Notes under the pieces: generated by a model
Told to the model about the DNA's origin: nothing
Databases searched by the model: none
Seen by the model: the letters and a program-made list of their open reading frames with translations, nothing else
DNA from: an uncultured Anaerolineaceae bacterium
GTDB lineage: Bacteria > Chloroflexota > Anaerolineae > Anaerolineales > UBA4823
Assembly (NCBI GenBank): GCA_964606085.1
Contig: CAZSFD010000014.1
Coordinates: 3,469-67,468, forward strand
DNA: 64,000 nt
Direction: 5' to 3'
In this document: piece by piece, positions 12,216 through 62,868 of the stretch
Layout of the letters: each line of letters starts with the position of its first letter
How positions within the stretch are numbered: the first letter of the stretch is position 1
Position numbers and translations under genes: made by a program

Positions 12216-13229
12216 ATGACTGTCAAAATTGGTATCAATGGCTTTGGCCGTATTGGCCGCCTCGTGTTCCGCACGATCCAGGCCCGCGTGGCCGACAAAG
12301 TGGAAGTGGTGGCAATCAACGATCTGTTCGATACCCCCACCAACGCGCACCTGCTCAAGTACGATTCAACCTACGGCGCTTTCGATGGCAAAGTGGAAGT
12401 GGCTGAGAACAACGACCTGATCGTGGACGGCAAGCGCATCAAAATCACCGCCGAACGCGACCTGAACGCCATCAAGTGGGCCGAGATGGGCGTGGACATC
12501 GTGATCGAATCCACCGGCCTGTTCACCGACGCCACCAAATCACGCGGTCACGCCACTTCTGGCGGGGCCAAGAAGGTCATCATCTCCGCCCCGGCGAAGA
12601 ACGAAGACATCACCATCGTCCTCGGCGTCAACAGCGACAAGTACGACCCCGCCGCTCACCAGGTTATTTCCAACGCCTCCTGCACCACCAACGGCCTGGC
12701 CCCCGTCGCCAAAGTCCTCAACGACAAATTCGGCATTGACCGCGGCCTGCTGACCACCGTCCACGCTTACACCAACACCCAGAAGCTGCAAGATGTCGGC
12801 GCTAAAGACCTGCGCGATGCCCGCGCCGCCGCCCAGAACATCGTCCCCTCCGAAACCGGCGCCGCCAAGGCCGTCGGCCTGGTCATTCCCGAACTGAAGG
12901 GCAAATTCGGCGGCATGGCCTTCCGCGTCCCCACCCCCACCGTCTCGGTTGTAGATTTCACTGCTATCTTGAACAAGGAAGCCTCGAAGGATGAAATCCG
13001 CGCCGCCATGCTCGAATATGCCGCCGGCCCGATGCAAGGCATCCTCGACGTGACCGACGAACCGCTCGTCTCCACCGACCTGCGCGGCACCACCTTCTCC
13101 TCCGTTTACAGCGCCATGGACACCCTCGTCCTCGGCAACCTGGTCAAAGTCGTGGCCTGGTACGACAACGAATGGGGCTACGCCTGCCGCCTGGCCGATC
13201 TGACCGCCATGGTCGCCAGCAAACTCTAA
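12216..13229 (+). CDS. gap: Glyceraldehyde-3-phosphate dehydrogenase
   Basis: Motifs seen: [34 protein letters not shown] lies upstream of the ATG. Confidence 0.95.
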
Positions 13230-13238
13230 AGATATTGT

Positions 13239-13305
13239 GGATTGCTGATTGTTGATTGCTGATTTTCTCGGCAATCAGCAGTCAGCAATCACAAATCAGA
13301 AATCC
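13239..13305. repeat. Heptamer-repeat imperfect hairpin filling the gap-pgk spacer
   Basis: The left arm GGATTGCTGATTGTTGATTGCTGATT (13239-13264) is built from GATTGYT heptamers. The right arm AATCAGCAGTCAGCAATCACAAATCAGAAATCC (13273-13305) is its imperfect complement with one extra heptamer. The element ends 5 nt before the pgk ATG. Confidence 0.8.
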
Positions 13306-13310
13306 ATAAC

Positions 13311-14483
13311 ATGAACAAAAAAACCGTCCGCGACATAGATTTGAAAGGCAAGCGCGTGCTGATGCGGGTGGACTTCAACGTCCCCATGGCCGATGGCGTG
13401 GTGACGGATGACAAACGCATCAAGGCCGCTCTGCCCACCATCCAATATGTGCTGGAACAGGGCGCTTCGCTGCTGCTCGCCAGCCACCTCGGTCGTCCGA
13501 AAGGCGGCCCCGATCCTGAGTTCAGCCTCAAGGCCGCTTCCGAAGCCCTGGCGAAACTGCTGGGCAAACCCGTGCAGATGGCTCCTGATTGCGTTGGCCC
13601 AGACGTGGAAGCACTGGCGAAAGTGCTGCAACCCGGCGACGTGTTGATGCTCGAAAACACCCGTTTCCACGCTGGCGAAGAAAAGAACGACCTCGAACTG
13701 GCCCGGCAAATGGCCGCCCTGGCCGAAGTCTACGTCAACGATGCCTTCGGCTCGGCGCACCGGGCGCACGCTTCCACGGAGGGTGTGGCGCGCTTCCTGC
13801 CGGCTGTCTCCGGTTTCCTGATGGAACAGGAACTCGAATACCTTGGCCGGGCTGTTTCCAACCCCGAACATCCCTACATCGCCATCCTGGGCGGGGCCAA
13901 GATCAGCGACAAAATCCTGGTCGTCGAAACCCTGCTGTCTAAATGCGATAAACTGATCATCGGCGGCGGCATGGCCAATACCTTCCTGGCCGCGCAAGGG
14001 CTGAACATGCAAGACAGCCTCGTCGAAGCAGCCTCCATCGAAACCGCCACAGCCCTGCTGGCCAAATCAGCCGACAAACTGGTGCTGCCCGTAGATGCCG
14101 TCATTGCCGACAAATTCGACGCCGAAGCCAATAGCCAGGTGGTGGCCGTAGACGCCATCCCCGCTGGCTGGCGTATGCTCGATGTCGGCCCGCAGACACT
14201 CGAACTGTATGCCGCGACGCTCCAGGATGCCAAACTGGTCGTGTGGAACGGCCCGGTGGGTGTCTTTGAAATGCCCAGGTTTGCCGAAGGCACCTTTGCT
14301 CTGGCGAAACTGCTGGCTGCCTCTGGCGCAACCACCGTCATAGGCGGCGGTGATAGCGCCAGCGCCGTCAAGAAGGCCGGCGTGGCCAAGCAGATGACGC
14401 ATGTCTCCACGGGCGGCGGCGCTTCCCTCGAATTCCTCGAGGGGAAAGAACTGCCCGGCGTGGCGGCGCTGCTGGATAAATAG
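13311..14483 (+). CDS. pgk: Phosphoglycerate kinase
   Basis: Motifs seen: [35 protein letters not shown]. Confidence 0.95.
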
Positions 14484-14495
14484 TTGCACGAAACG

Positions 14496-14540
14496 AGAAA
14501 TGAGAAACGAGTACCTCAACCGTACTCGTTTCTCATTTCT
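14496..14540 (+). promoter_or_regulatory. Perfect 19-bp stem-loop between pgk and tpiA, built from GAAAYGA heptamers
   Basis: AGAAATGAGAAACGAGTAC (14496-14514) pairs perfectly with GTACTCGTTTCTCATTTCT (14522-14540) across a 7-nt loop. It lies between the pgk stop (14483) and the tpiA ATG (14565). Confidence 0.8.
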
Positions 14541-14564
14541 TATATCTACTTTTTGGAGACCCTC

Positions 14565-15323
14565 ATGCGAACCCCTCTTGTTGCTGGAAACTGGAAAATG
14601 TACAAGACCGTGGCCGAAGCCCGTCACCTGGTGTCGGAGTTGGTGCCTGGTTTGCAATCTATCGGCGGTGTCGAAAAGGTGCTTTGCCCCCCCGCCACCG
14701 ACCTGATGGCTGTAGCCGCCCTGCTCGAAGGGACTGAAATTGGCCTCGGCGCGCAAAATATGCACTGGGAAGCCGCTGGCGCATTTACGGGTGAAATTTC
14801 ACCGGCGATGGTGGCTGAATTGTGCAAATACGTGATCCTGGGCCATTCCGAGCGCCGTCAATACTTCGCCGAAACCGATACTACGGTCAACCGCAAAGTG
14901 CGCGCCGCCCTCGAAGTTGGCCTGATCCCCATCGTCTGCGTTGGCGAAACGCTGGCCGAATATGAAGCCGAGCGCACCGCCGAAGTGGTTGGCCGCCAGA
15001 TCAAACTCGGCCTGGCTGGTATCGAATTGACCGCCGATGCAGCCGCTTCGCTGGTCATCGCTTATGAGCCGGTTTGGGCCATTGGCACCGGGCGCGCTGC
15101 CACATCCCAGGGCGCCAATGCCGTCATCGCCGATATTCGCAGCATTTTGGCGGAACTTTTTGGCGCTGAAACGGCCCAGGGCGTGCGCATCCTTTATGGT
15201 GGTTCGGTCAAACCCGATAATGCCGCCGAGTATTTCAACCAGCCCGATATTGACGGGGCGCTGGTAGGCGGGGCCAGCCTGAAGGTGGCCGATTTTGTCG
15301 CCATCACCCAGGCTGCCGGTTGA
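14565..15323 (+). CDS. tpiA: Triosephosphate isomerase
   Basis: Motifs seen: MRTPLVAGNWKM start with GGAGAC upstream, ILGHSERR, AYEPVWAIGTG. The track start at 14484 lies inside the hairpin spacer. Confidence 0.95.
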   Translation: MRTPLVAGNWKMYKTVAEARHLVSELVPGLQSIGGVEKVLCPPATDLMAVAALLEGTEIGLGAQNMHWEAAGAFTGEISPAMVAELCKYVILGHSERRQYFAETDTTVNRKVRAALEVGLIPIVCVGETLAEYEAERTAEVVGRQIKLGLAGIELTADAAASLVIAYEPVWAIGTGRAATSQGANAVIADIRSILAELFGAETAQGVRILYGGSVKPDNAAEYFNQPDIDGALVGGASLKVADFVAITQAAG

Positions 15324-16128: not shown

Positions 16129-17430
16129 TCAAGCAGGTTTCCAAAGCTTTGCCAGCGGCCCTTCCACCTCGCAGCCCAGCGCCGCTGCCAGCAGTTCCAC
16201 CGGGTGAACCGCCGGGATGCCCGTGGCGTGGGTGATCTGCCAGCGGCAGGTTTCGCTGTCGCAGATTGCCAACGGTGCGCCCGATGCCTTCACCCACTCG
16301 AACAGCGGGTCGCCTACGGCCATCGCAATGTCGTATTTTTCCACTTTATACCCATACGTCCCGGCGATGCCGCAGCAGGCGTGGCCGCCATCTGCCACCG
16401 TCAGGCCAGGGATCAGGTTCAGCACGTCTAGCCCCGGTTTGCCGATGCGGTGGGCGCGGTATTGGCAGGGGATGTGGTAGGGCAGGGGGGGCAGGTTTGC
16501 CGGTTGCAGGTTGGTAAGTGGCAGGGCGCAGGTGGCAAAGATCGGCAGGATGAATTCGTTGAAATCGTAGGTAGATTGGGCGACGAGGGCGGTGTCATCA
16601 TCGTGCATATCGAGCAGTTCGGGCGCTTCTTCCTTCAGGGTCAACGTGCAACTGGTGGACGTGCCGACGATGGGGATGCCCTGCCGGGCGTACGCCACCA
16701 ACGAGCGCACATTGCTCTCGTGATATTTGCGCGCCGCCGGAAATTCGCCGTTCGAGAGCAGCGGCAGCCCGCAGCAATTTTGGCGCGGGATGATCACCTC
16801 GAAGCCGAGCGCCTCCAGCACACGCACTGCCGCCTTGCCCACCCGCGGCTCGTAATACTGCGTGGAGCAGCCGTGGAAGTAAACGACCGATTTTTGATGG
16901 CTGATTGTTGAGGGCTGATTTTGGTGGTGGGCAAACCACCTCGTAAATTTCTCGCTCGAAAACGGCGGAAAGGGGGCTGCGTGGTGGATGCCGATGGTTT
17001 TCTCGGCCATCCAGCGCACCGGCTTCAGGCCCATCACCAGGTTGCCCAGCGGCGCCACCGGCTGCGCCACGGCCCCCAGCGTGGCCGCCCGCGCCACCAG
17101 GTTGTTGCGCAGACGTTTGAGCGGCGGCACTTTGCCCTGTTGCACCAGGTCGCCGCGCGCCCGCGCATTCATCTCAGCGATCTTCACCCCCGTCGGGCAG
17201 ATCATATTGCACACCCGGCAGCCGGAGCAGTAATCTACCGATGCGTCGGGCGTGGGCTGGCCGGGTTGGCGGAAGCGCCCTGCCTGCGGCCCGGCGTACT
17301 TGGGGCCGGGGAACAGGTCTGTGACCGCCATCACCGGGCAGGCGGTGGTGCAGATATTACATTTGAGACATTGATCGAGGGATTGTTCGACAGGAAATGG
17401 GTGCATGGGTTTGTGTGGCGCAAAATTCAT
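16129..17430 (-). CDS. GlpC-like (Fe-S) oxidoreductase with two 4Fe-4S motifs and two CCG domains
   Basis: Motifs seen: CLKCNICTTACP, CSGCRVCNMICP, FHGC..NCCGLP, CCGIAGTYG, CDSETCRWQI. The protein appears collinear with E. coli GlpC as recalled from memory (no alignment run). The start at ATG 17430 forms an ATGA overlap with the upstream membrane-protein gene; the 565-aa track ORF is an over-extension. Confidence 0.85.
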   Translation of the reverse strand: MNFAPHKPMHPFPVEQSLDQCLKCNICTTACPVMAVTDLFPGPKYAGPQAGRFRQPGQPTPDASVDYCSGCRVCNMICPTGVKIAEMNARARGDLVQQGKVPPLKRLRNNLVARAATLGAVAQPVAPLGNLVMGLKPVRWMAEKTIGIHHAAPFPPFSSEKFTRWFAHHQNQPSTISHQKSVVYFHGCSTQYYEPRVGKAAVRVLEALGFEVIIPRQNCCGLPLLSNGEFPAARKYHESNVRSLVAYARQGIPIVGTSTSCTLTLKEEAPELLDMHDDDTALVAQSTYDFNEFILPIFATCALPLTNLQPANLPPLPYHIPCQYRAHRIGKPGLDVLNLIPGLTVADGGHACCGIAGTYGYKVEKYDIAMAVGDPLFEWVKASGAPLAICDSETCRWQITHATGIPAVHPVELLAAALGCEVEGPLAKLWKPA

Positions 17431-20230: not shown

Positions 20231-23200
20231 TCACGGCCCGTTGCGGAAGATCAGCGGCAGGTAGATTTTGCGCAATGTCTCCTCCTCGCCCATGGTCAGC
20301 GTGGCTGTGGCGTTGGCGCTGGTGCTGCTGCCGGTGGCCGTGGCTGTCAGCGTGTATGTGCCATCGCCCGATGGCGTCACCCACACCAGCAGGGTGGCGG
20401 TGGCGTGGGCGGGCAGCGTGAGGGTGGCGCTGCTCAGGCTGAGGCTGGCCGCGGGATCGCTGGTAATGGACAGGTCGAGGGTGGCCAGCGTGGAACCGGT
20501 GTTGGTGACGACCAGGCCGAAAGCGGCACTGCCACTCTCGATGCTTTGTGTGGCGGGCTGCCAGGCGAGTTCGACGCCCTCCAGCGGGGTGATGGTCACT
20601 TCGGTGGTGGCTTGATCTTCGATGGCCGGCTGCGCTGTGGATTGGGCGTGGAGGCCGAGGAAGGCCGCGCCGGCGATCAAGCCATCCAGCCCGCTGACCG
20701 TCACCTGCACCGTCTGCGACTGCCCGGCGTTCAGCGTGACCGAGGCCGGGCTGAGCGTGGCAAACGCTGCCAGCGGCCCGAAGGCGGCCAGGTCGAACGT
20801 GCCGCTTGAACTGCCGGGGTTGCTCACGTTCACCTGCCACACGCCGCTGCCATCGGGTTGGAGGCTGGCCGGGCCGCCGGTGAAGGCCACGCTCACACCC
20901 AGGCTGCCCACCTGCACCACGCCATCCCCCGTGGCCGCCGCCCGCGCCGATTGTGCGGTGACGCCGACGGCATAGCTGCCCGGCGCAGCCGTGGCCGCCG
21001 GGCTGACCAGCCATTGCAGCGTGACGGCGTTGCCCGCGCCGGGGGCCACCAGCACGGCGCTGACCGGCTGGCCGAGCAGGGTCAGTTGGCCGCTCCAGCC
21101 TGCCGGGAGCGCCGCGCTCAGGTTGTAGGTGTCGGGCAGGCTGCCCAGGTTGGCGATGACCACGGTGAGGGCGGTCAGCGCGCCAGGGCCGGATGCGGCT
21201 GTTGCCGGGTCGAGTGTGACGGCGACGAGGTGGGCGCCTTCGCCGCTGATGACGGCGGTAGCGCTGGCGCTGGCCCCCGTTGCGGCGTAGGCGGCGATCA
21301 CGGTGAACGGGTTGCCGCCCTCGCTCACCGCCTGGGCGCTGAACGAAATTTCTGCGGCGCTGTTGGCGGGTACGCTGACCTGGGCGGGCAAATCGAGAAC
21401 GGCCAGGCCAGAGAAGGCGAGATCGTAGGTGCGGGCGGCGGCTTCGAGGTTGGTCACGGTCAGCGTGTAGGCAGCGGTCTCGCCGGTGGGTACGCCGGCG
21501 CTGTCGGGGGTGATCTCGACCAGCAGCGCCGGGCCGGTGAGGGTGAGAATGCCGCCGGCCTGATCGCCATCCACGAACACGCCAAAAGGCAGGCTGGCGG
21601 GCGTGGCGTCAGGGGCAATGGCGGCGGTGAGCGGCACGGTCACTGCGCTGTTGGCGGGTACGTTCACCGGGTCGAGCGGCCCCCAGGTGACGCCCGGCAG
21701 GGGGGTGACGCCGGGCGTGTAGAGGACGCCGGAAGGCCCTGGGTTGGAGAGCGTCACGTTGAACGTAACCGTCGCGCCGTTCGGGGCGGCCTGTTCTGCC
21801 GGGTCGAGGGCGATGATGTGCGGTACGCTGACGTACAGCGGCGGCAGTTCGAGGTGATTCTGGCCCGATGGCAGCGTGTAGTCAACGGATGTGGCCTGGG
21901 CGACGAGGCGGGTTTCGCCGGGTTGCAAGTCGGCAAGTTGGACATCGAAGGTACGCGTGATGACGGGGGTTTCCCAGGTTTGGGCGTAGTCCCAGGTGAA
22001 GGTGGGCAGGGCCAGGGTGGAAGGTTGCACGTTGAAGGTGTCGGTGAGGACGGTGAGGCTGTCCAGCCCGACGGTGTGGGTGAGGGCGACGGCGAAGGAG
22101 AGCATGGGGTAGCGCAGGTGAGTTTGCGTGCGGTAGGTGTTGTGAACTTCCCAGCTATTTGGCTCGCTGAAGGGCAGGCTCAGATCGTCGTTGATGTTGG
22201 TGATGTGGTAGGAGTGCTGGTTCCACAGCGGGCGGGCCTCCGTCCACAGCGGGCCGTTGCCAAAGACGCGCAGGCCGCGCAGGGCGGCTACCACCACTTC
22301 GGCCTGGCCGTCGTTATCTACATCGGCAATCAGGGGGTAATCGGTGCCGGTAAACGAATTGGCTAACGGTTCGTCGAAAAGCACATCGCCGGTCGCGCCA
22401 TCGAAAATCGTAAAGCCCTGCTCTTTCCCGTTCCAGGCCACTTCGTAAATGCCATCGCCATCCAGGTCCATCACCGCGGCGTTGTTGGCGGAGGTGCTGT
22501 CCTCGGCGATGACGCTCCACAGCAGCGAGCCATCGGCGTTGAGGGCGTAGAGCTTGCCGAAGCGCCCGGTTTCGAACTCGTGCTTCATGCCGGTAACGAT
22601 TTCGATCTCGCCGTCGCCATCTATGTCGGCGATGGATACGCCGCCGGGGTTGCCCGCTTCGAGCGGGGTCGTCCAGAGCAGCGCGCCGTCTGGCCCGTCG
22701 AGGACGGTCAGCGCGCCGTTGTGGGCGAAGGCCGCTTCGGGGCCGGGGTCGCCGCCGGGCTGCGCGCCATCTATATCGGCCACGGCGGGCGCGCCGAAGG
22801 TGCCGGCCATTGTCGAGGTCAGTGTGGCGCTCCAGGCCAGTTGCGGCGAGCCGTAGTTGAAGTCGTAGACGAACACTTCGTCGTCCCAACCGGTCAGGAC
22901 GATGTCGAGCAGGCCATCGCCGGTGAGGTCGGCCAGCACCGGCGGGTTGACTTCTTGGGGGTAGACGGTGCTCCACAGCAGTTCGCCATCGTGGGCGCGC
23001 ACTTCGAGGCGGTTGCCGGCGTTGACGACGATTTCGGGTTCGGGGTCGAGGTCGAGGTTGGCAATGGCCGGGGCGGTGAGGGTCTCGAAGATGCTGACGG
23101 TGTCGGTGACCCAGTAGGTGCTGCCGTCGCCGTGGAAGGCGTAGAGTTGGTCGCCCGCCGCCACGACGATCTCCGCGCCGGGCAAGCCGTCCAGGTCGCC

Positions 23201-26200
23201 CAGGGCGGGCGAGCTGACCCAGGTGCGGAAGGTTCCGCCGCCGAAGTCGTGCGACCAGACGATGGGGTCGCCGTCGCCGGTGTCGCCGCCATCGCCGCGA
23301 TAGACGAAGAGCGTGCCGAAGTTGATCACATCGTCGGCAGAGACCACGATTTCGGGCCGGCCGTCGGCATCTACATCGCCAACGGCCATACCGGCGGCGA
23401 TGCCGTAAGTGCCGAAGAAGGGCGCGCCGTTGCCGGCGGGGGTGTCATCCCACCATTCGGCAATCGGCTGGTAGGGCAAGGCGGGCTGGTTGGCGGCGAA
23501 GCCATCCACGCGCATCTCCCACACATTATGGACGCGAATGCTGTGCGGGCCGTAGGGCAGGCCGGTGTAGTGGAAGGCCAGCGGCTGAACGCTGAAGGGG
23601 TAATCGAAGCGGATCGTGTCGGTGAGAACGCCGTCTATGTAAATTTCGGCATGGGTATTGTCATTTACCGACAGTCCGTACACGGTGACGGAATCGCCCA
23701 CGAAGCTGTACCAGACGTTGCTGTTGCTGTTGGGCAGGCCCGAGTCCACGAAGTCACCCTGAAAGGCATTCGGGTGGGCGGCGTCGCTGGCCGAACTGCT
23801 GACATGCACGCGCGCCGATTCTTGGCCGCGCCGGGCGTTCTGGAAATCGTCGCTGACGGGCGAGCCGTCCCAGAACTCGACGTAATCGAGATAGACCTGG
23901 TTGTAGCCGTTGGGCGGGTCGGAGATGCCCAGCACGGTGATGGTGACGGTGTGTGTGCCGGTGATCACGTCGAACGGGTACGCGGCAACATCTTCGCCTG
24001 GCGTGTAGGCGTTGATGCTGCCGTAGCTCACGCCGTCAATGCTCACATCGGCCAGGCCGCCGCGGTTGCGCGTGCGCAGGCCGATTTCGAGCCAACTGCC
24101 GTAAAAATCGAAACTGACGGTATTGCCAGGGGTGTTGGATACGGCGTAGGCATACTCGCTGGCCTGCGGGGCGTTTTCGGCTCCCCACGTGTTGGGGCGA
24201 TGGGTGAAGGGGGAACCGTTGTAGCGCAGGGCGGGGTGGTCTTCCTCATAGCGCACCAGGCCGGTGTCGCTGGGCGGGTCGTAATCGGGGCCGACGGCGG
24301 GGGTGATGAAGGCGTCCACGTTGGCCTCGCCGCGGAACGTGCCGATCTGCATGACGTGAGGGCCGGGGCCGAAGCCGCTGAACGAGTAGGTGCGTGTGAC
24401 CGGCTGCCCGGCGTAGATCAGCACGTCGCCCTGCCACACGCCATCCACCCACACATGCACGCGGTGGCTGTCGTAGCGGGCGAGCGCCACGAAACTGGCC
24501 GAATCGCCGGTGAAGGGCAACCAGGCCGACTGGTTGTTGTTGATTGCGCCGTCTTGCATGTAACTGCCGCCGCTGGCCTCAGCCTGCGTGACCGTGAACC
24601 ATGCGCCGGGCTGGATCATGATGCGGGGATCGTTGTGTTCGTACAGGCCATCGGGGTAGAGCGTGCCATCCCAGGTATCCACGTAGTCAATCTTAATCTC
24701 GGCGCCGCTGGCGTTGGGGTGCGATTGACCCGTGACGACGATCTCCAGCGTGTGCGCGCCTTCGCCCAGTCCGCTGAAGGCGGCGCTGCTGGCGCATTCG
24801 CTGATGAAGCACTGCTGCACCGGGTGGTACAAATCCACCGTGCCGCGGCTGATGCCATCCACGAAGATTTCGGCAATGCCGCCGTTGCGCGCCTTCGCGA
24901 AGCCGATATGCACCCACGCGCCGTTGAACGCCAGGCTGGCCGTATCGCCCGGCGTGGCCGAGGCCGTATAGCTGCCGTCGCTCAGGTGCGAGGCGAAGAT
25001 GTTGCTGACGGTCGCCCAACTGCCGGTGTAAGCGAGGGCGGCATTTTGGGTGCGCGTGATGGCGAAGGTGGATTGGGGGGCGAGGGGAGGAAAGGAGATT
25101 TCTGATTGTTGATTGTTGATTGCTGAATTCTGATTGCGTGATTGCGTGATTGGGTGATTTTGCGGCACGATGCCGGGGATGATGATTTCGGTCGTGATAG
25201 CCGTGGTGACGGTGAACTCGCCGGGCGGGACGAGGAGCGGGGTGGTGCTGTGCGAGACGCCCAGCAGTTGGCCCACACCCAGGTAGGCGTAGTTGCTGCC
25301 CGTGGGGATCAGGCTGCCATTGCCATCGAGCAGTTCCACCGTGACGGTGTAGATACCGGCGGCCCAGCCGGAGGTATCCACGGTTTGCAGTTCGTAGCTG
25401 CGCGGCGCACCGACCCGGATCGTGACGGGCGTCTCGCTGCTGTGCGTGAGTGTGCCATCGGGTGCGCTGATGGCGGCGCGGGCGGTGGCGTTTTGCACAA
25501 TGTTGGCGATATTGGCGACATCTACAAACAGGGTGGTGCTGCTGCTGCCGGTCTCGACGAAAGCAGGCGTAGGCCGCACCGCCGTAATCTGCACAAACTT
25601 ATCCACCACGTTGAATTTCGCCGGGCTGTACGCCGAAATTTCACCGTGAGCGACGACCGTCACCGCCGCTTCCAGGTCATACACCCCGACAGCCGGCTGG
25701 ACGAGGTTATAGGGGCGGGTTTCCGTGCCGCCGGGATCGAGCGTGACCTGGCCGCCTTCGAGCGTGCCGCCGGGGAGCGAGACGGTGAAGGCGTAGGTGG
25801 TTTGCAGGCTGCCGCGGTTGGTGAGCGTGAGGGTGTAGGGAAGCGTCTGGTCGGTCAGGGCTGCGCCGTAGAAGGGCGTCCAGCGCAGTTCGGGGGCGTG
25901 CTGGCTCCAGGCGCACACTTCGCCATCCAGGGTGGTCACGGCGGCGCTGATCGCCTGGAGGTCGGCGGTCACATCGGCGGGGTCGGTGTGCGCGGCGAGG
26001 GAATCGGCGGCGGCAACCAGGGCCGCCGCGCCATCCAGTCCGTCGTGGACGGCCCCGGCGTAGAGCGCCACGCTGTAGGCGGCGCTGACGACCTGATCAC
26101 GCGGGATGGGGTGGCAGTCGCCGTTCTGGCAGGCGCTTTCGAGCGTCGTCATTGCCAGGGCCAGGGCATTCAGCGCCGCCGAAAGGCCCGGCTCGCCAAG

Positions 26201-29200
26201 CGTGCAGACGGTGGCGGCATTTTCCGATGCCTGGAAGACGGCCCCCGACAACTCGCTGACGATCTGCACGTTGGCAAGGGCATACTGCGTGTAACTGCCC
26301 GGCGCGGGGCTGCCGATGACGAGCGGGAAGCGCACACCCAGCGGCAGGTCGCTGGCGGCGGTGAAGGTGGCGGTTTGGGCGGCGCTTGCGCCTACGTCCA
26401 GCGTGACGGGCGAGGTCAGGCCGGTCACGCTGCCCACGTTAGGCGGTAAGATGACGTTCAAGGGGAAGCTGCCGGGGGCGTTGCCGACGTTGGTTATCGA
26501 AAGGTCGAAATCAGCGGCGGTGTTGGGGGCGAGGTAGAGGGTTGAAGGTTGGAAAGTTACAAAGTTGAAGGGTTGGGAGGGCATGAGCCAGTTGATCGTG
26601 GCCGAGTCGGAGAGCGCGCTGCCATCGCTGGCGCTGAGGTTGAGGGTCAGGCTCGTGCCGGGAGCGGGCAGGGTGGGCGGCGAAACATACAGGCCGAGCG
26701 TGGCGCGGGCGTTGGGGGCCAGGCTGAGGCTGGTGGCGCTTTGGCGCTCACCGTTTAAGATCAGCCAATCTGCTGGCGCGCCGGTGATGTTGAGGGTGAT
26801 GGTTTTGGGCTGCGAGGTCAGGTTTTCCACTTGCAAGCGGTAAGCGGCGTTGGGCACTTCGCTTTCGCCGTCGTTGGTCTCGTTGGCTTTCGCGTCGAGC
26901 AGGGCCGCACCGACCGGCACGCTGATATTCGGTTCAGCTTGCCAATCCAGGGTGATGGCGTTGGCGTTGGAAACGCTAATGGTGGTCTCGATGACGGCGG
27001 TGGCTTCGGGGTGCTGGCGCGCCTGGCCGACGATGCGCACGGTGTAATTTCCGGCGGCCACGCCCGGCAGGGGGGTGACGAGCGCTTCGAGCGTGGTTTC
27101 ATCGAAGGTCAACAGGAAGTCATCGGGCGCATAGGCCCACACATCCACCAGGCCAGCAAAGTTGGCCGCGGCGCTGATGTCGAAGGTGTGCGTTTCGCCA
27201 GGCAGTACACTGCCCGAAGGCGGCGTCACATCGAGGCTAAAGGCAGGCGAGCCGCCGCCGCCATCGGTCACTTCAATCACGCGCCCACCCCAGCTTTCAC
27301 CGGCGAAGCCGTCGTGGTAGCCAAAGGGTATCTCTGGCAGCGGGATGGGGGCCTGATCGGGGTAACGCAGGGCAAATTGTTCGATGCCGCAGGTTTCACC
27401 TGGGCAAAGATAGGCCGGCAGGTAACGCCATGAGGCGGCCTGTGGGCGCAGGCCGGGGCCGGGCGGCGACCAGCCATCCAGACAATTCGTCGGGCCGCCG
27501 GGGTTGCCTCGCAGCGCTGGCACCACGGCTTGCTCGATGCACGTCCACAGGTCAGAGACGGCCTGCTGAATTTCAGCGCCATCTTGCACGAGCAGGGCGA
27601 AATCTATGATGTTGGAGAGCATTTCATACTCGACCGCCGAAAGATGCAGCCCGTTCTCCATCACGCTGACAGTCTGGCCGGTTTGCGGGTCCACTTCCCA
27701 CCAGCCCAACACGGCCGCGCCGTCTACCATCACCGGCGCGGCGGGGATGAGGATGGCTTTGCCCTCCAGCAGGGCTTTTTCGGCGTAGGCGTAGGATGAA
27801 CCGGAGAAGTACAGTCCAAGCAGGGCGGTATCGCCGGGGGCAATCCACACCGGCTGGATGCCCTGTCCCGCCATCTCGTCGAAGAGGCGCGAGACGGTCA
27901 GCGGCGCCTGGCCGGTGAGCCGGAAGATGGCCTGGCCCTCGAAGTACGACTCGGCCACGCCTTTCAGCCATTGGGCGCTAAAGGCCGCCTGGGGCGACTG
28001 CCCCGGCGCGACCACGATTTTAGCCTCCGTCGAACGCAAATCTAACGCTTGGTAGACGCTGCCATCCGACTGCCGGGCGCTGCTGGCGATAATAACGCGT
28101 GGCTGTTCGTACACCCATTTGACCCGCAGCGAGGCTTCGATGTCGCGCTGCGTGCTGTCGGCCAGTTTGGCAAACTCCAAACCGGCCAGGGCATACTGCT
28201 CGTTACGCGCCTGAATATATTTGAGCATCATCTCGCGCAAGGCTGCCCCGCCGGCGGGCGTGCTGAGGTCGGCGGGCAGGTTTTGGGTCATTTGGGCGGT
28301 GGCGAGGATGGCGCGGGCGTTTTCGGCCTGGGCTTTGCGGGCGTATTGCTGATTTTTGAGCGCGTTGGGCAAGAACCAGGCGGCGAAGAGATCGTCGAAG
28401 GTGGCGAAGGGGGCATTATCGGCGGGCAGGGCGATGACCGGGTTGCCGCCGTGCAGTCGGGTTTCCAGGCCGAGCAAGTCTTTCAGTTCACGGGTGAAGC
28501 TATCGGTGACATTGCCGTTGCCATCCTGAATGGTCACGTGCAGCCACTCGGCCAGCGTGAAGTGGGAGGCCAGCGGGAAGTTGGTCAGCAAATCCTGGAA
28601 ATCGTCGCCCAGGAAGAGAACCTCATCGCCACCGACGGCGAAATAGGGCGTGTAGGTGTGCAAAATATTCGTCACCACGCCGCCCTGGATTGCCGTGTTG
28701 ACGATATGCCCAAAGGTGACGGCTTTGGCGGCCAGTTCGGGCATGGCAAAGGTGGCGGTGAGCGGGGTAAACGAAGTCAGGTTGAGGCCGCCCACCGGGA
28801 AACTGCTGTACTGCTCCACCTCGAGGGCAAAGGTGACGCGTTGACGCGTGGCGTCGGGCAGTTCGGCGAGGCGGTCGTTGCTGCCCGGCGTGGCGAAGAC
28901 ATCACCCACCTCGGCCTCGGCAAACGATGGGTCGAGGTTCGTCCAGCCAGAAGCGGGCAGGTAAGCCTCCACCCACCAGTGATCCTGGACGAGGGCGAGC
29001 AGGGCGGCGTCGTTGGCGGGGTCGGCGGTGGCCGCGCCAGCGGGCAGGTATCCGGCCACGCCCTGCGCCGCCGGGAACATGCCGTTGATCAATACCTGGG
29101 CATCTGCGGTGGAAAGCGTGCCGTGGCGGTAACGCGCCGGAATGCCCGCCGCACGCAGCATGGCGATCAGCAGGCTTGATTGGTCGAGGCTGTTGCCGGC

Positions 29201-29974
29201 CTCGTTCCACAGTGTGCCGCGCGTGCCGCGCAGCGAACCGGGGTAAGGGTCGAAGGCGAAGCCGCGCACGAAGGCGAAGAGCGCCAGCGGGTCTTGTGCA
29301 AACTCAGCAGATTTCCACAGCATGTCGGCGTCGTGTGAGTTGGCATCCAGCGTGGGCGTGGTGTAGGCGGCGGCGATGCCGGTCGGGATGATCGTGGCAG
29401 GGTGGGCTGTAACGGAGACGGTCTGTCCCCAATACGTGGCCGAAGCCTGCGCACCGCTATCGAGATTGATAAAGTTTGACCCGGCGGCAGGCGTTTGCAC
29501 GGTCAGCGTGAGCGTTGCGCTGGCCTGCGGCGGCAGGTCGGGCAGGCTCCAGGTGATGGTGCTGCCGCTCTGCACCGGCCCGTCCGAGGCAGACACAAAA
29601 GTGGTGCCAGCGGCAAGCGTATCGGCCAGGGTGAGGCCGCGCAGGGTGTTGACATCGTCGGTGGGGTTGAAAGCTGCCAGGATGTTGACCGTGTCGGTGG
29701 GTGTGGTGGATGGCGAAATATCGGGCAGGCGCGTGGCTGGCAGGTTGTTGGTGAGGACGAAGGTGATCGTCGTCGTCCCGGCGGTGTAGGAAGATTGGAG
29801 GCGCGAGAGCGAGAGGGGGTGATCCAACGTCTGCGCCGGGGCAGCGGCGGTTTGCGCATCGGGCGCTGGCGGAACTTGGGGCGTGGTCACGGCTGCCTGG
29901 ACGGGCATGAAGGCGAAGAGTTGGGCAATGATGACCAGCAGCGAAATGGCTCGGAAGGTGATGGAACGGTGCAT
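20231..29974 (-). CDS. Giant (3,247 aa) secreted mosaic surface protein: DUF11-like, transglutaminase-like, Ig-like arrays, jelly-roll modules, FG-GAP propeller
   Basis: Uninterrupted ORF with AGGAG 7 nt upstream of the ATG and a signal peptide MHRSITFRAISLLVIIAQLFAFMPVQA. Segments seen in order: DUF11-like LADTLAAGTTFVSASDG..TWSLPDL; transglutaminase-like LLIAMLRAAGIPARY / HWWVEAYLPASGWTNLDPS; four jelly-roll-like repeats; eight D.D.DG..E(I/V)V blades; NEW3/CARDB-like LPAGWSG..APGSYAVGV modules. Confidence 0.85.
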   Translation of the reverse strand: MHRSITFRAISLLVIIAQLFAFMPVQAAVTTPQVPPAPDAQTAAAPAQTLDHPLSLSRLQSSYTAGTTTITFVLTNNLPATRLPDISPSTTPTDTVNILAAFNPTDDVNTLRGLTLADTLAAGTTFVSASDGPVQSGSTITWSLPDLPPQASATLTLTVQTPAAGSNFINLDSGAQASATYWGQTVSVTAHPATIIPTGIAAAYTTPTLDANSHDADMLWKSAEFAQDPLALFAFVRGFAFDPYPGSLRGTRGTLWNEAGNSLDQSSLLIAMLRAAGIPARYRHGTLSTADAQVLINGMFPAAQGVAGYLPAGAATADPANDAALLALVQDHWWVEAYLPASGWTNLDPSFAEAEVGDVFATPGSNDRLAELPDATRQRVTFALEVEQYSSFPVGGLNLTSFTPLTATFAMPELAAKAVTFGHIVNTAIQGGVVTNILHTYTPYFAVGGDEVLFLGDDFQDLLTNFPLASHFTLAEWLHVTIQDGNGNVTDSFTRELKDLLGLETRLHGGNPVIALPADNAPFATFDDLFAAWFLPNALKNQQYARKAQAENARAILATAQMTQNLPADLSTPAGGAALREMMLKYIQARNEQYALAGLEFAKLADSTQRDIEASLRVKWVYEQPRVIIASSARQSDGSVYQALDLRSTEAKIVVAPGQSPQAAFSAQWLKGVAESYFEGQAIFRLTGQAPLTVSRLFDEMAGQGIQPVWIAPGDTALLGLYFSGSSYAYAEKALLEGKAILIPAAPVMVDGAAVLGWWEVDPQTGQTVSVMENGLHLSAVEYEMLSNIIDFALLVQDGAEIQQAVSDLWTCIEQAVVPALRGNPGGPTNCLDGWSPPGPGLRPQAASWRYLPAYLCPGETCGIEQFALRYPDQAPIPLPEIPFGYHDGFAGESWGGRVIEVTDGGGGSPAFSLDVTPPSGSVLPGETHTFDISAAANFAGLVDVWAYAPDDFLLTFDETTLEALVTPLPGVAAGNYTVRIVGQARQHPEATAVIETTISVSNANAITLDWQAEPNISVPVGAALLDAKANETNDGESEVPNAAYRLQVENLTSQPKTITLNITGAPADWLILNGERQSATSLSLAPNARATLGLYVSPPTLPAPGTSLTLNLSASDGSALSDSATINWLMPSQPFNFVTFQPSTLYLAPNTAADFDLSITNVGNAPGSFPLNVILPPNVGSVTGLTSPVTLDVGASAAQTATFTAASDLPLGVRFPLVIGSPAPGSYTQYALANVQIVSELSGAVFQASENAATVCTLGEPGLSAALNALALAMTTLESACQNGDCHPIPRDQVVSAAYSVALYAGAVHDGLDGAAALVAAADSLAAHTDPADVTADLQAISAAVTTLDGEVCAWSQHAPELRWTPFYGAALTDQTLPYTLTLTNRGSLQTTYAFTVSLPGGTLEGGQVTLDPGGTETRPYNLVQPAVGVYDLEAAVTVVAHGEISAYSPAKFNVVDKFVQITAVRPTPAFVETGSSSTTLFVDVANIANIVQNATARAAISAPDGTLTHSSETPVTIRVGAPRSYELQTVDTSGWAAGIYTVTVELLDGNGSLIPTGSNYAYLGVGQLLGVSHSTTPLLVPPGEFTVTTAITTEIIIPGIVPQNHPITQSRNQNSAINNQQSEISFPPLAPQSTFAITRTQNAALAYTGSWATVSNIFASHLSDGSYTASATPGDTASLAFNGAWVHIGFAKARNGGIAEIFVDGISRGTVDLYHPVQQCFISECASSAAFSGLGEGAHTLEIVVTGQSHPNASGAEIKIDYVDTWDGTLYPDGLYEHNDPRIMIQPGAWFTVTQAEASGGSYMQDGAINNNQSAWLPFTGDSASFVALARYDSHRVHVWVDGVWQGDVLIYAGQPVTRTYSFSGFGPGPHVMQIGTFRGEANVDAFITPAVGPDYDPPSDTGLVRYEEDHPALRYNGSPFTHRPNTWGAENAPQASEYAYAVSNTPGNTVSFDFYGSWLEIGLRTRNRGGLADVSIDGVSYGSINAYTPGEDVAAYPFDVITGTHTVTITVLGISDPPNGYNQVYLDYVEFWDGSPVSDDFQNARRGQESARVHVSSSASDAAHPNAFQGDFVDSGLPNSNSNVWYSFVGDSVTVYGLSVNDNTHAEIYIDGVLTDTIRFDYPFSVQPLAFHYTGLPYGPHSIRVHNVWEMRVDGFAANQPALPYQPIAEWWDDTPAGNGAPFFGTYGIAAGMAVGDVDADGRPEIVVSADDVINFGTLFVYRGDGGDTGDGDPIVWSHDFGGGTFRTWVSSPALGDLDGLPGAEIVVAAGDQLYAFHGDGSTYWVTDTVSIFETLTAPAIANLDLDPEPEIVVNAGNRLEVRAHDGELLWSTVYPQEVNPPVLADLTGDGLLDIVLTGWDDEVFVYDFNYGSPQLAWSATLTSTMAGTFGAPAVADIDGAQPGGDPGPEAAFAHNGALTVLDGPDGALLWTTPLEAGNPGGVSIADIDGDGEIEIVTGMKHEFETGRFGKLYALNADGSLLWSVIAEDSTSANNAAVMDLDGDGIYEVAWNGKEQGFTIFDGATGDVLFDEPLANSFTGTDYPLIADVDNDGQAEVVVAALRGLRVFGNGPLWTEARPLWNQHSYHITNINDDLSLPFSEPNSWEVHNTYRTQTHLRYPMLSFAVALTHTVGLDSLTVLTDTFNVQPSTLALPTFTWDYAQTWETPVITRTFDVQLADLQPGETRLVAQATSVDYTLPSGQNHLELPPLYVSVPHIIALDPAEQAAPNGATVTFNVTLSNPGPSGVLYTPGVTPLPGVTWGPLDPVNVPANSAVTVPLTAAIAPDATPASLPFGVFVDGDQAGGILTLTGPALLVEITPDSAGVPTGETAAYTLTVTNLEAAARTYDLAFSGLAVLDLPAQVSVPANSAAEISFSAQAVSEGGNPFTVIAAYAATGASASATAVISGEGAHLVAVTLDPATAASGPGALTALTVVIANLGSLPDTYNLSAALPAGWSGQLTLLGQPVSAVLVAPGAGNAVTLQWLVSPAATAAPGSYAVGVTAQSARAAATGDGVVQVGSLGVSVAFTGGPASLQPDGSGVWQVNVSNPGSSSGTFDLAAFGPLAAFATLSPASVTLNAGQSQTVQVTVSGLDGLIAGAAFLGLHAQSTAQPAIEDQATTEVTITPLEGVELAWQPATQSIESGSAAFGLVVTNTGSTLATLDLSITSDPAASLSLSSATLTLPAHATATLLVWVTPSGDGTYTLTATATGSSTSANATATLTMGEEETLRKIYLPLIFRNGP
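25097..25161 (-). repeat. Heptamer/octamer repeat tract translated in frame inside the giant ORF
   Basis: The minus strand reads AATCACCCAATCACGCAATCACGCAATCAGAATTCAGCAATCAACAATCAACAATCAGAAATC and encodes NHPITQSRNQNSAINNQQSEI. It shares the ..CAATCAGAAATC end and AATCA(R)C units with the intergenic element at 13273-13305. Confidence 0.75.
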
Positions 29975-33105: not shown

Positions 33106-33119
33106 TCTGAGGCTATTCA

Positions 33120-33203
33120 CCACAAAGGACACAAAGGGACACGAAGGGTTTTCCCTTGGTGAACCTGGCGATACGAAGTATCGCGGTGTCCTTTGTGGTT
33201 TTA
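33120..33203 (+). terminator. Compound hairpin terminator built from 9-10-nt repeats
   Basis: The outer 13-bp stem pairs CCACAAAGGACAC (33120-33132) with GTGTCCTTTGTGG (33186-33198) and is followed by TTTTAAAA. Inner hairpins are AAGGGTTTTCCCTT and CGATACGAAGTATCG. The left arm contains GACACAAAG / GGACACGAAG repeats. Confidence 0.65.
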
Positions 33204-50084: not shown

Positions 50085-50228
50085 GCAGAGCAGGTTGCAA
50101 GTTGCAGGTGGCAGGAAGCGCGGGGCGAGGGTATGGAAAGAAACGCCGGATGCTGCGATAACGCAACACCCGGCGCAAACCTGCTACTTGCTCCTTGCCA
50201 CTTGCCCCCTGCTACCTGCCCCCTGCTA
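50085..50228. repeat. Degenerate-heptamer inverted repeat (GCAGGTN family) downstream of the GH4 gene
   Basis: The left arm is GCAGAGCAGGTTGCAAGTTGCAGGTGGCAGGAAGC (50085-50119). The right arm is CCTGCTACTTGCTCCTTGCCACTTGCCCCCTGCTACCTGCCCCCTGCTA (50180-50228). GCAGGTGGCAGG against the complement of CCTGCTACCTGC matches 11 of 12. Confidence 0.7.
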
Positions 50229-51572
50229 TGCTTCCAAATGCGTGAACTGCGGCAAGTAATCCTTGTTCTTCTGCAGCATCTGGTTGACCATTTGTTTGAT
50301 CTCGGCCAGGGAGAGGACGGCGGCGCTGAGCGGGTCGTGGATGACGGCCTGGTAGACCAGGCGCGGGTTGCCGGTGAGGGCGGCTTCGACGGCCATCTCT
50401 TCGATCATCGAACTGGTGTGGACGAGGGTGGCTAACTGCGGCGGCAGCGCACCGACGTGAACGGGGTGCAGCCCGGCCTTATCCACGTACACCGGCACTT
50501 CCACGCACGCCCCTTCGGGCAGGTTGGTGATCAACTTGGTGTTGGGCACGTTGCCGTTGAACCAGAAGATTTCGCCGCCTTTGACGGCGTTCATGATGTA
50601 AGCGGCGTATTCGTGGCCGCGCTCCAGGCTGATGGGAACTTCTTTGTCGAACCACTTCTTGGCTTCGTCGCGCCAGGTGTCGGCGGCTTTTTCGTATTCG
50701 TGCAAGATGTAGGCGTAGTGGCCGGGATTCCAGCCGGTGCCGTGGGTGCAGTATTTTTCGATCAGGTCGGGGCGCTTGCGGAACCAGGCGTTGTATTCAG
50801 AGTTGTGGCCGCTCGACTCGGTGACGTAGTAATCGAGCGCCAGGTACATTTCGTTGCGGACGATTTCTTCGTTGTAAACCTCGGGGCGCTCGGTGATGGC
50901 TTTGTGGATCAGCGGGTAGGCGTCTTTGCCGTTCCATTTGAAATCGAGGTAGAAGGCCTGGTGGTTGATGCCGGCGCAGGTGTAGGTGATTTCGCTATCG
51001 GGCGCACCGATCCAATGGGCCAGCATCGAGGCGGTGCCCTGGACGCTGTGGCACAGGCCGGTCAGGCGCAGGTCTTGGCCGAAATGGTCGAATTTCTTCT
51101 GGATGGCTCGGCAGAGCATGGCCATGGGGTTGGTGTAGTTCAACACCATCACATCGGGTTTGGCGTAGCGTTCGATGTCGGCGGCGATGTCGAGCATGAC
51201 GGGGATGGTGCGCAGGGCGCGGAAGATGCCTGAGACGCTGCGTGTGTCGCCGACGTTGGTATCCACGTTATATTGCTTGGGGATCTCGATGTCGTAGCGC
51301 CACACGTCCACGCCGCCCGCCAGGATGGTGATCAAGACGAAATCGGCGTCTTGCAGGGCTTCCTGGCGGCTGAGCGTGGCTTCCACTTTGGCGGGGTAGT
51401 TGCCCATCTCGACGATGCGGGTGACGGCACGCCTGGCGAAATCGAGCCGTTCGGGGTCAATATCCATCAGGCTGATCGTGGCGTCGGTGAGGGTGGGGAA
51501 GGTCAGCAGGTCGCGCACCAGGCCGCGTGTGAAGCCCAGGCTGCCAGCTCCAATGAAGGCGATTTTGGTCAT
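50226..51572 (-). CDS. Glycoside hydrolase family 4 (alpha-glucosidase/alpha-galactosidase, NAD/Mn-dependent)
   Basis: Motifs seen: [41 protein letters not shown]. Confidence 0.9.
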
Positions 51573-53554: not shown

Positions 53555-53562
53555 GGGAAGAT

Positions 53563-53618
53563 GGTGAGAGGGTGAGAGGGTGAGAGGGTGAGAGGGTGAG
53601 AGGGTGAGAGGGTGAGAT
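53563..53618. repeat. Seven tandem octamers GGTGAGAG (CTCTCACC on the obg strand)
   Basis: Six perfect copies and one imperfect copy (GGTGAGAT) lie head to tail. The array starts 9 nt upstream of the obg ATG, in the obg/rex divergent spacer. Confidence 0.95.
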
Positions 53619-57479: not shown

Positions 57480-57853
57480 ACCTCTGCCTGCTGCCATCTC
57501 GCTTCTCCATTTACCGCCTCGACCCGGCTGCGCCGCTTCCCGTATGGGCGGTTGGCGAACTGGTGTCGCTGACGCGCACGGCAGATGAGCTTTCGGTGGT
57601 TTGCGCGGCTGACGCCGCGCCGTCGGGTGTGCGGGCGGAAAGCGGCTGGCGCGCTTTCAAGGTGCTTGGCCCGCTCGATTTCGCCCTGGTCGGTATCCTG
57701 GCGCAGCTTGCGGGTGTGTTGGCGCAGGCGGGGGTCAGCCTGTTTGCCATTTCCACCTATGATACCGATTACATCCTGGTCAAAGAAGATATGCTTGGTC
57801 GTGCGCTGGCCGCTTTGCGCGAAGCTGGGAACGAAGTGACGGTGCCAGGGTGA
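57476..57853 (+). CDS. ACT-domain protein (ACT_7/CASTOR-like)
   Basis: Motifs seen: WRAFKVLGPLDFALVGILAQLAGVLAQAGVSLFAISTYDTDYILV. ATGA overlap with the moeA stop. Confidence 0.65.
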   Translation: MNLCLLPSRFSIYRLDPAAPLPVWAVGELVSLTRTADELSVVCAADAAPSGVRAESGWRAFKVLGPLDFALVGILAQLAGVLAQAGVSLFAISTYDTDYILVKEDMLGRALAALREAGNEVTVPG

Positions 57854-58178: not shown

Positions 58179-58204
58179 AAATATCAGAGAAAGGAGATTC
58201 CGCT

Positions 58205-61722: not shown

Positions 61723-62757
61723 ATGTCCCCCTATCGCGTTGGCATCATTGGCTGCGGCCGCCCGTGGAAGGCCGATGGCTCGACCGGTTTTGGCATGTCG
61801 CGGGCGCACGCCCGCGGCTACAACCGCTCACCTGACTGCAAAATCGTCGCTTTGGCCGACATCAAGCTCGAAAACGCCCAGGCTTTCCAGGCTGAGTTGG
61901 GCGGCGATACACTTTACACCGATTACCGCGAGATGCTTGCCAAAGAGAATCTCGACATCGTCAGCATCTCGGTTTGGACGCGCCTGCACAAAGAGATGGT
62001 GCTGGCCGCTGCCGAAGCCGGGGTGAAGGCCATTCACTGCGAAAAGCCCATCGCGGCCAATTTTGGTGACGCCAAAGCGATGGTGCAGGCGTGCGAAAGC
62101 CGCGGCATCCAACTGACGTTCAATCACCAGCGCCGTTTCGACAGCGAGTTCCGCAAGGTGCGCGAACTCTACCAATCGGGCGTGATCGGCAAGCTCGAAC
62201 GCATGGAAGCGCGCTGCCCCGATATGTTCGACTGGGGCACGCACTGGTTCGATATGCTCTTCTTCTACAACGACGAAACCCCGGTGGAATGGGTGATCGC
62301 CCAGGTGGAGCCGCGCGGCGGGCATGATGTCTTCGCCGTCTACATGGAAGAACAGGGCATCAGCCATTTCAAGTATGCCAATGGCGTCCTCGGCACGCTC
62401 TACACCGGCCACACCGATCATTGGGATGCCTACAACCGGCTGGTTGGCGAGAACGGCACCATCGAACTGAACATGACCCGCAACCCGCAGGTGCGTTACT
62501 GGGCCAAAGGCATGACCGACTGGCAGGATGTTGCCACCGAAAAGGTGGAAGCCGTCGAGCTGGGCGTCCTCGACCTGGTAGATGCCCTCCAGACCGGCCG
62601 CGAGCCAGAGCTTTCGGGCGCGCGTGCCTTGCGCGCCACCGAGATGATCTTTGCCACCTACGAATCCAGCCGCCGCCACGGGCGCGTCGAACTCCCCCTC
62701 GACATCGAAGACAACCCGCTCGATGCGTTGGTCAAGATGGTAGCAAGTGGCAGGTAG
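61723..62757 (+). CDS. Gfo/Idh/MocA family oxidoreductase
   Basis: Motifs seen: YRVGIIGCGR, HCEKPIA, and a C-terminal alpha/beta domain. The stop TAG (62755-62757) lies inside the repeat arm. Confidence 0.9.
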   Translation: MSPYRVGIIGCGRPWKADGSTGFGMSRAHARGYNRSPDCKIVALADIKLENAQAFQAELGGDTLYTDYREMLAKENLDIVSISVWTRLHKEMVLAAAEAGVKAIHCEKPIAANFGDAKAMVQACESRGIQLTFNHQRRFDSEFRKVRELYQSGVIGKLERMEARCPDMFDWGTHWFDMLFFYNDETPVEWVIAQVEPRGGHDVFAVYMEEQGISHFKYANGVLGTLYTGHTDHWDAYNRLVGENGTIELNMTRNPQVRYWAKGMTDWQDVATEKVEAVELGVLDLVDALQTGREPELSGARALRATEMIFATYESSRRHGRVELPLDIEDNPLDALVKMVASGR

Positions 62758-62868
62758 CAGGTCAACCCTGCCCCCCTCCCCCCTGCCTCCTGCTAACTGC
62801 CCACTGCTAACTGCTCCCTGCTCCCCGCTCCCATGCTCCCTCCCTCCCCCGCTCCCTCCCCCCGTCTC
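62743..62868. repeat. GCAGGTN-family repeat hairpin plus C/T-rich tract spanning a stop codon and the next start codon
   Basis: GCAAGTGGCAGGTAGCAGG (62743-62761) pairs imperfectly (15 of 19) with CCTGCTAACTGCCCACTGC (62789-62807). CTGCTMM and CTCCC repeats follow up to 62868. Confidence 0.7.

Follow-up and report, generated by a model that had tools for sequence, protein, structure and literature searches.

Inverted heptamer arrays form hairpins in the gap-pgk spacer and other intergenic regions of an Anaerolineales (Chloroflexota) genome

The gap-pgk spacer

The window analysed here is a stretch of 64,000 nt, positions 3469-67468 of contig C14 in a 5.3-Mb, 171-contig assembly of 59% G+C. Relatives of its PGK came from Anaerolineales MAGs in nearly all cases, at 75-90% identity, and the host is an Anaerolineales (Chloroflexota) MAG. 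The genes gap, pgk and tpi follow one another on the + strand (Table 1), and the gap product carries near its C-terminus a WYDNEWGY motif that is common to its relatives.

The gap stop codon and the pgk start are separated by a spacer of 81 nt. Its repeat part was read as g GATTGCT GATTGTT GATTGCT GATT, followed by ttctcggc, by AATCAGC AGTCAGC AATCACA AATCAGA AATCC and by ataac directly before the ATG. The first-pass annotation had described this spacer as almost entirely a hairpin with tandem heptamers in its arms, and the letters, Tandem Repeats Finder (TRF) and RNAfold bore this out; its further statement that the hairpin stops 5 nt before a pgk ATG without Shine-Dalgarno (SD) motif also agreed with the sequence. 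TRF placed period-7 arrays at 13240-13264 and 13271-13304, which is the 7-nt tandem-unit organisation of the STRR class of repeats. Folded with RNAfold, the + strand of 13231-13297 forms a stem of 30 bp closed by a loop of 5 nt; the energy is -41.8 kcal/mol (z -8.3), which 0 of 200 shuffles matched; the - strand gave -31.3 kcal/mol, so that the + strand was better by about 10 kcal/mol. The hairpin, with GATTGYT / AATCAGC heptamers as its arms, fills the whole spacer. The stem is followed by AUAACAUG, and there is no U-tract of the kind that marks a canonical terminator. The letters upstream of the pgk ATG contained no GGAG-type motif. The loop of 5 nt holds no PF05635 ORF, and the element is located between gap and pgk, not in a 23S rRNA helix. 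The gap-pgk element is real and non-random.

Table 1. Genes and repeat features of the window (positions are those of the window)
Feature	Position	Strand	Remarks
gap (GAPDH) ORF, upstream cistron	12216..13229	+	from ORF list; stop TAA 13227-13229
gap-pgk hairpin, 5' arm	13231..13262	+	contains GATTGYT heptamer array 13239-13264
gap-pgk hairpin, loop (5 nt in MFE fold)	13263..13267	+	
gap-pgk hairpin, 3' arm, paired up to 13297, with one extra AATCAGA/AATCC unit	13268..13305	+	stops 5 nt short of pgk ATG
pgk ORF	13311..14483	+	no Shine-Dalgarno motif in 17 nt upstream
Second repeat-armed hairpin, pgk-tpi spacer; GAAACGA/GAAATGA units, 20 bp	14495..14541	+	z -8.3
tpi ORF	14566..15323	+	start inferred from N-terminal sequence MRTPLVAGNWKM
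Weak 2.3-copy 14-mer of GATTG units in GlpC-like ORF 16129-17430(-), no hairpin	16889..16920	+	z ~0
Solitary TGATTGT/TGATTGCG array in 3248-aa ORF 20231-29974(-), no hairpin	25100..25159	+	z ~0
Hairpin of 9/10-nt CACAAAGGA family, nested inner hairpins	33119..33199	+	z -8.5
Long hairpin, GCAGGTT / CCTGCTA heptamer arms, inner hairpin in loop	50085..50231	+	z -5.6
Asymmetric element, 3 GGTAGCA-type units left, long CCCTGCT array right, partial pairing	62736..62868	+	z -3.9

Other repeats in the window

Short-period hairpins had also been annotated at 14496-14540, 33120-33198 and 50085-50228, and all three fold strongly (Table 1). At 62743-62868, where another had been placed, the repeat units were found, and the element is asymmetric and only partly paired rather than a full hairpin. 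Units related to those of the gap-pgk spacer had been reported at 16896-16923 and 25097-61; GATTG units are present at both sites, which are coding sequence and form no hairpin. The in-frame array at 25100-25159 belongs to an exported 3248-aa protein and encodes ...PQNHPITQSRNQNSAINNQQSEIS..., and that at 16889-16920 belongs to a GlpC-like Fe-S protein and encodes ...NQPSTISHQKS.... Both look like heptamer arrays taken into linker regions.

The loops of the hairpins at 33119-33199 and 50085-50231 each hold a second, unrelated small hairpin, as if inserted. A near-perfect octamer array, (AGAGGGTG) x 7.4, occupies 53559-53617, in the spacer of a divergent gene pair with starts at 53554(-) and 53746(+); this unit is the commonest period-8 unit of the genome (14 arrays), and the copy in the window is solitary and forms no hairpin. 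Two tandem copies of a 145-nt unit, 97% identical, occupy 57897-58179 between two + strand genes (57476-57853 and 58205-58777); this repeat does not belong to the heptamer type and has no Rfam match. Across the whole window no Rfam family was found at gathering score.

Repeat scan of the genome

Genes were called with a crude codon-usage ORF caller, which gave 3890 genes with approximate starts and missed at least one real gene in the window. Arrays were counted in 2772 intergenic regions and in dinucleotide-preserving shuffles of them, and an array was regarded as paired if an inverted partner was located within 200 nt.

Recurrence of intergenic 5-mers at lags of 7, 14, 21 and 28 nt was 6.4, 6.0, 5.1 and 3.6 per mille, with a baseline of about 2.2; the same test on coding DNA showed no peak at lag 7 and only the 3-nt periodicity. 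Intergenic arrays of period 7 numbered 340, of which 125 were paired, as compared with 16-24 (0-1 paired) in the shuffles. For period 8 the counts were 185 (61 paired) in the genome and 25-34 (0) in the shuffles, for period 9 they were 156 (61) and 15-24 (0-1), for period 10 they were 75 (20) and 28-38 (0), and for period 11 the excess was small, 37 (2) and 17-26 (0). The repeats are therefore recurrent families and not the isolated coincidences that a whole-genome scan might have revealed, and the earlier description of STRR-like short-period hairpins recurring as families holds, with intergenic heptamers found in several unit families.

After merging, 244 hairpin loci were obtained, 219 of them unbranched, with a median stem of 26 bp, a median loop of 6 nt and a median dG of -36 kcal/mol. 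They fall into roughly ten unit families, and a few units make up tens of loci each. The dominant units are GAAGGTT, ATTCGTT/ATTCGAT, GATTGCT, GCAGGGG, CGTGATG and GTCAAAG, together with the 9-10-mers CACAAAGGA and ACGGAACAC; among period-7 units AACCTTC (59), AACGAAT (44) and AATCAGC (28) are the commonest. The GATTGCT family, to which the gap-pgk arms belong, has about 19 loci in the genome, with stems of 19-49 bp, unrelated loops and varying copy numbers.

Position and orientation of the hairpins

A hairpin was found in 9.7% of the spacers between co-directional genes, as against 5.6% where the genes converge and 5.1% where they diverge. In co-directional spacers the locus begins at a median of 5 nt past the stop codon (6.5 nt to the stem) and ends some 21-22 nt before the next start, and the hairpin is nearer to the stop than to the start in 147 cases and nearer to the start in 40; many span the spacer from stop to start codon. 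No fewer than 34 genes, including pgk, have their start 12 nt or less from a stem, and 6-18% of these have an SD-like motif, as against 27-40% genome-wide.

U-tracts were not enriched after the stems: of 178 cases, 18 had at least six T among the 10 nt that follow on the sense strand, and 30 did on the antisense strand. The canonical intrinsic terminator was rejected on this ground and on the under-representation of hairpins in convergent spacers. The sense strand had no general advantage in stability from G:U pairing (169 co-directional cases; sense better in 71, antisense better in 98). The + strand bias at gap-pgk is thus not general, sense-strand selection at the RNA level was rejected, and arm complementarity does not resemble the residue of RNA-level selection.

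The strand of the unit that forms the 5' arm is fixed within each family, with 106 loci conforming and 7 not across nine families (p ~1e-23). Transcription direction cannot explain this polarity, since the order (U)n-loop-(U')n remains the same when reverse-complemented. Independent origins in place would give about 50:50, so that the fixed polarity suggests either that copies are made within a family or that the arms are generated by a polar mechanism. A simple purine/keto rule for the 5' arm was considered and abandoned: although the 5' arm is purine-richer in 168 cases as opposed to 44, the rule fails for the GATTGCT and ATTCGTT families. The true regularity is polarity per family.

PF05635 genes and array density

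The small proteins of the PF05635 family, named for the 23S rRNA intervening sequence (S23p), are homologous to the diversity-generating retroelement (DGR) cofactor Avd (PMC10053308). Five matches to it were found in the genome, one DGR-like and four non-DGR. The DGR-like one, a weak match at C153:949-1239 located directly 3' of a reverse-transcriptase-like ORF, probably encodes a DGR Avd, and its surroundings are free of heptamer arrays. Two of the others (C6:82330-82569 and C154:527-841) lie inside the loop of an inverted pair of 7/8-nt arrays, that at C27:11319-11639 has a complete ATTCGWT hairpin on both sides, and that at C10:102-419 has a long TAGTCNN hairpin downstream and the contig end upstream. 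The run of about 50 C just 5' of this last gene (C10:1-52) is probably an assembly artefact. When genes were ranked by complementarity between upstream and downstream flanks, all three testable PF05635 genes were among the top 25 of 3834 (p 2.5e-7). None of the four cassettes has GATTGYT arms, so that the genome holds no family-specific parent copy for the gap-pgk element.

Other genes were seen in similar surroundings. At C156:97-2139 a cas1 gene (PF01867) and an adjoining MazE/AbrB-type antitoxin gene with a likely toxin partner each lie within inverted TAGTCNN arrays, and loop cargo other than PF05635 is therefore possible. At C22:36771-37330 a PDDEXK_3 / GxxExxY gene (PF13366, 130 aa) has complete 9-nt ACGGAACAC-family hairpins on both sides.

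PF05635 was present in 97 of 151 sampled Anaerolineales genomes, in up to 22 copies. At the 30 best loci from other Anaerolineales the PF05635 ORF, usually with a GGAGG of its own, is preceded by an array and followed by the inverted complement of that array. Of the 28 loci that could be assessed, every one had a TRF array of period 7, 14 or 21 on at least one side, and 23 had such arrays both upstream and downstream.

Array density was compared with PF05635 copy number in 36 Anaerolineales genomes, 20-80 kb of each being used, with statistics that ignore kinship. Genomes with no PF05635 gene had 2.7 period-7 arrays per 100 kb (18 in 675 kb, 1 paired), those with 1-6 genes had 9.2 and those with 8 or more had 15.2; for the control periods 5/10/11/13 the corresponding densities were 8.3, 7.5 and 11.3. 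The rate ratio between genomes with and without PF05635 was 4.5 for period 7 (p 3.5e-11, kinship ignored) and 1.1 for the control periods (p 0.59), and the Spearman coefficient between array density and copy number was 0.81 (36 genomes, kinship ignored). The contrast had the same sign within families f1, f7, f12 and f16, and G+C content did not explain it. The source genome, with its four PF05635 genes, has 13.9 period-7 arrays per 100 kb. The dependence behind this correlation could equally run the other way, with PF05635 genes requiring hairpins rather than hairpins requiring the genes.

Orthologous sites in relatives

Five genomes of one genus (L210-L214) carry a cassette of 419-463 nt between a fumarylacetoacetate-hydrolase-like (FAH-like) gene and the homogentisate dioxygenase (HGD) gene. 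The 5' arm begins at the stop codon, and in all five folds the PF05635 ORF sits in a loop closed by 23-34 long-range base pairs. Depending on the genome, the arms are built of xxTTAGC, xxTCAGC or xxTAAGC units, all units and those of the opposite arm having changed to match. Both arms of the orthologous cassettes evolve in concert. In a sister genus (L215, G114:C28) the site is empty, the FAH-like gene and HGD being 14 nt apart with a GGAGG between them.

The gap-pgk spacer contains a hairpin (z below -3) in 48 of 59 Anaerolineales relatives, with unrelated sequences, and a hairpin follows gap in Brevibacillus outgroups too. Heptamer arms in the relatives were identified by reading the sequences and with TRF; identity at lag 7 over the whole spacer was discarded as a detector, since degenerate units and arms that differ in phase made it insensitive. 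Many of these hairpins have heptamer arms (GTAnACA, TAGTCnn, ATTGGTA, CTGGAAG) and many others do not, and in three relatives the spacer is 12-27 nt long and without hairpin. At the same site one of the two same-genus genomes has a GGGGATTG/CAATCACC hairpin and the other a plain hairpin, and in a genome of another family a TAGTCnn hairpin spans the spacer from stop to start. The GATTGCT family is patchy, with about 29 matches in one genome of another family and none in either same-genus genome.

Discussion

STRR-type repeats have been known from cyanobacteria since 1990, the units STRR1-3 having reportedly been described in that year by Mazel from filamentous or heterocystous species. The cyanobacterial repeats are mostly 7 bp long and form hairpins between hupS and hupL in four filamentous species; their function is not known, and roles in transcript stability or translational coupling have been suggested (PMC2670836). 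The repeats described here resemble them in having 7-bp tandem units, in being intergenic, in falling into several families and in forming a hairpin between co-transcribed genes. They differ in the phylum of the host and in their units, none of the 40 commonest being among the reported STRR consensus units, and the figures given here for polarity, for placement from stop to start and for the link to PF05635 refer to Anaerolineales. The first-pass annotation had suggested that such hairpin-forming arrays were undescribed in a Chloroflexota-like genome. This stands for the lineage, as our literature search found no paper on such arrays in Chloroflexota, and does not stand for the arrangement, since STRR hairpins had already been described in cyanobacteria (PMC2670836). 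What is new here is the lineage (Chloroflexota, Anaerolineales), the STRR-like heptamer hairpin being a known kind. The search also found no paper that ties intergenic heptamer hairpins in general to PF05635.

Heptamer arrays of other bacteria were compared as well. Those of Xanthomonas (GGGAATC) and Nostoc (GGGGAYT) are intergenic, with conserved and free positions in the unit, some inverted pairs and extensive length variation, and related species share an occupied spacer in which the sequence has changed (PMC4692102). They are G-rich, were studied as G-quadruplex formers and are mostly solitary, whereas most units here are not G-rich and 125 of the 340 period-7 arrays have a nearby inverted partner. 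In marine Beggiatoaceae TAACTGA heptamers, for which a post-transcriptional function was suggested, are abundant in intergenic DNA beside start codons (PMC4679880); this is one unit in 169 direct sets and one inverted, in contrast to the many families, many of them paired, found here. Heptanucleotide multicopy elements are also known from Geobacter (PMC2700814).

The gap-pgk stem was further compared with the intervening sequences (IVS) of rRNA. Leptospira 23S rRNA, like that of Coxiella, carries a protein-coding IVS with an S23p/PF05635 ORF. The Coxiella IVS has an S23p ORF, a 28-bp terminal stem in which RNase III cuts, and GACAGAT heptamers that number two or three according to the strain (PMC4990558). 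The PF05635 cassettes described above share with S23p-bearing IVS the inverted repeats around a PF05635 ORF and the variable tandem heptamers in the arms, and the 30-bp gap-pgk stem is about as long as the terminal stem of the Coxiella IVS. They are unlike them in that the sites here are between protein-coding genes and in that most copies, that at gap-pgk included, have no ORF.

The explanation that we favour, considering the chances that it is right to be about evenly balanced, is that the gap-pgk element is a gene-less IVS-like cassette with arms built at the DNA level and a stem that is a probable RNase III cut site between gap and pgk. The class would consist of hairpin cassettes, each with a tandem array of 7-10-nt units as one arm and an inverted array as the other, and it is read as IVS-like cassettes in mRNA spacers because the full-length form encloses a PF05635 (S23p, Avd-like) gene in its loop. 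The arms would be made and kept complementary in the DNA, through slippage within the arrays and conversion or template switching between the inverted arms, their upkeep presumably not depending on selection at the RNA level. In the gap-pgk-tpi transcript RNase III, a gene for which is present in the genome (C24:21300-21677), may cut the 30-bp double-stranded stem, by analogy with the S23p-bearing IVS of Coxiella; the predicted cut would split the gap message from that of pgk and release the pgk start, which lacks an SD. Against this explanation, the hairpin contains no ORF and the genome no PF05635 cassette with GATTGYT arms, and loops and copy numbers differ within the family, unlike those of simple copy-paste elements. 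Nearly all relatives, moreover, have some hairpin between gap and pgk, many of them without heptamer arms, which fits selection for any stem-loop at the site.

Other explanations were weighed against the IVS-like cassette. The arrays might be neutral by-products of slippage, 7-nt units slipping easily and hairpins being kept where any stem-loop is useful, with no link to PF05635 and no copying between sites. Heptanucleotides are the most abundant long class of simple sequence repeats in many bacteria, for which slippage has been proposed (Mrazek 2007, as presented in PMC4679880 and PMC4692102), unit numbers and loops differ among members of one family, and periods of 8, 9 and 10 occur too. We nevertheless regard this explanation as unlikely, for a polarity of 106:7 is not expected if either arm could arise on either side, a few units account for tens of loci each, and GATTGCT has its loci here and in a genome of another family but none in the two same-genus genomes. 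Array density, in addition, tracks PF05635 copy number while the control periods do not.

A functional RNA element at mRNA 3' ends is likewise doubtful. The hairpin would act as a terminator or attenuator, or as a REP-like 3' stabiliser, it would keep gap mRNA above pgk mRNA, and the heptamers would be incidental to it. This would suit hairpins that start about 5 nt past the stop codon and are mostly nearer to the stop than to the next start, it would suit the hairpin that follows gap in most Anaerolineales relatives and in Brevibacillus, and roles in transcript stability or translational coupling were proposed for the STRR hairpins (PMC2670836). But the stems are not followed by U-tracts, at gap-pgk or in general, hairpins are rarer in convergent than in co-directional spacers (5.6% and 9.7%), and the sense strand has no G:U advantage.

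It is quite improbable, in our estimation, that the PF05635 proteins, as Avd homologues, themselves take part in making or spreading the arms. They might do so, for example, by a telomerase-like templated addition of a short unit to each 3' end where the DNA is broken or receives an insertion. If this were true, templated addition would give the fixed polarity (U)n...(U')n, the concerted arms, the trapped cargo and a density proportional to PF05635 copies, and the 35-year puzzle of STRR and the general excess of heptamers in bacteria would have one enzymatic cause.

REP/REPIN-type elements mobilised by a RAYT (IS200-like Y1 transposase) are extremely unlikely, for although REP/BIME sequences of enterobacteria and pseudomonads are also extragenic palindromes in transcribed operon spacers, with hundreds of copies, several families per genome, turnover between genomes and a likely effect on mRNA ends, the sole Y1_Tnp domain encoded here is the C-terminal part of a 572-aa open frame on a contig without any repeat hairpin, and REPs have a fixed consensus whereas the arms here are tandem arrays of variable unit number with stems of 19-49 bp, unrelated loops and no RAYT association.

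The same structures as the cyanobacterial STRR, unexplained since 1990, are thus present in an abundant uncultured order of Chloroflexota, where they offer three handles: a polarity rule that is independent of strand, the concerted evolution of the arms and the dose-response with PF05635. To our knowledge, the only studied relatives of PF05635 are the rRNA intervening sequences excised by RNase III and the DGR cofactor Avd. Two questions are raised, whether the stem is an RNase III site that uncouples the cistrons and whether the PF05635 protein binds or makes the arms. For annotation, about 9% of operon spacers in this genome are such hairpins, and the genes that start close behind a stem mostly do so without an SD.
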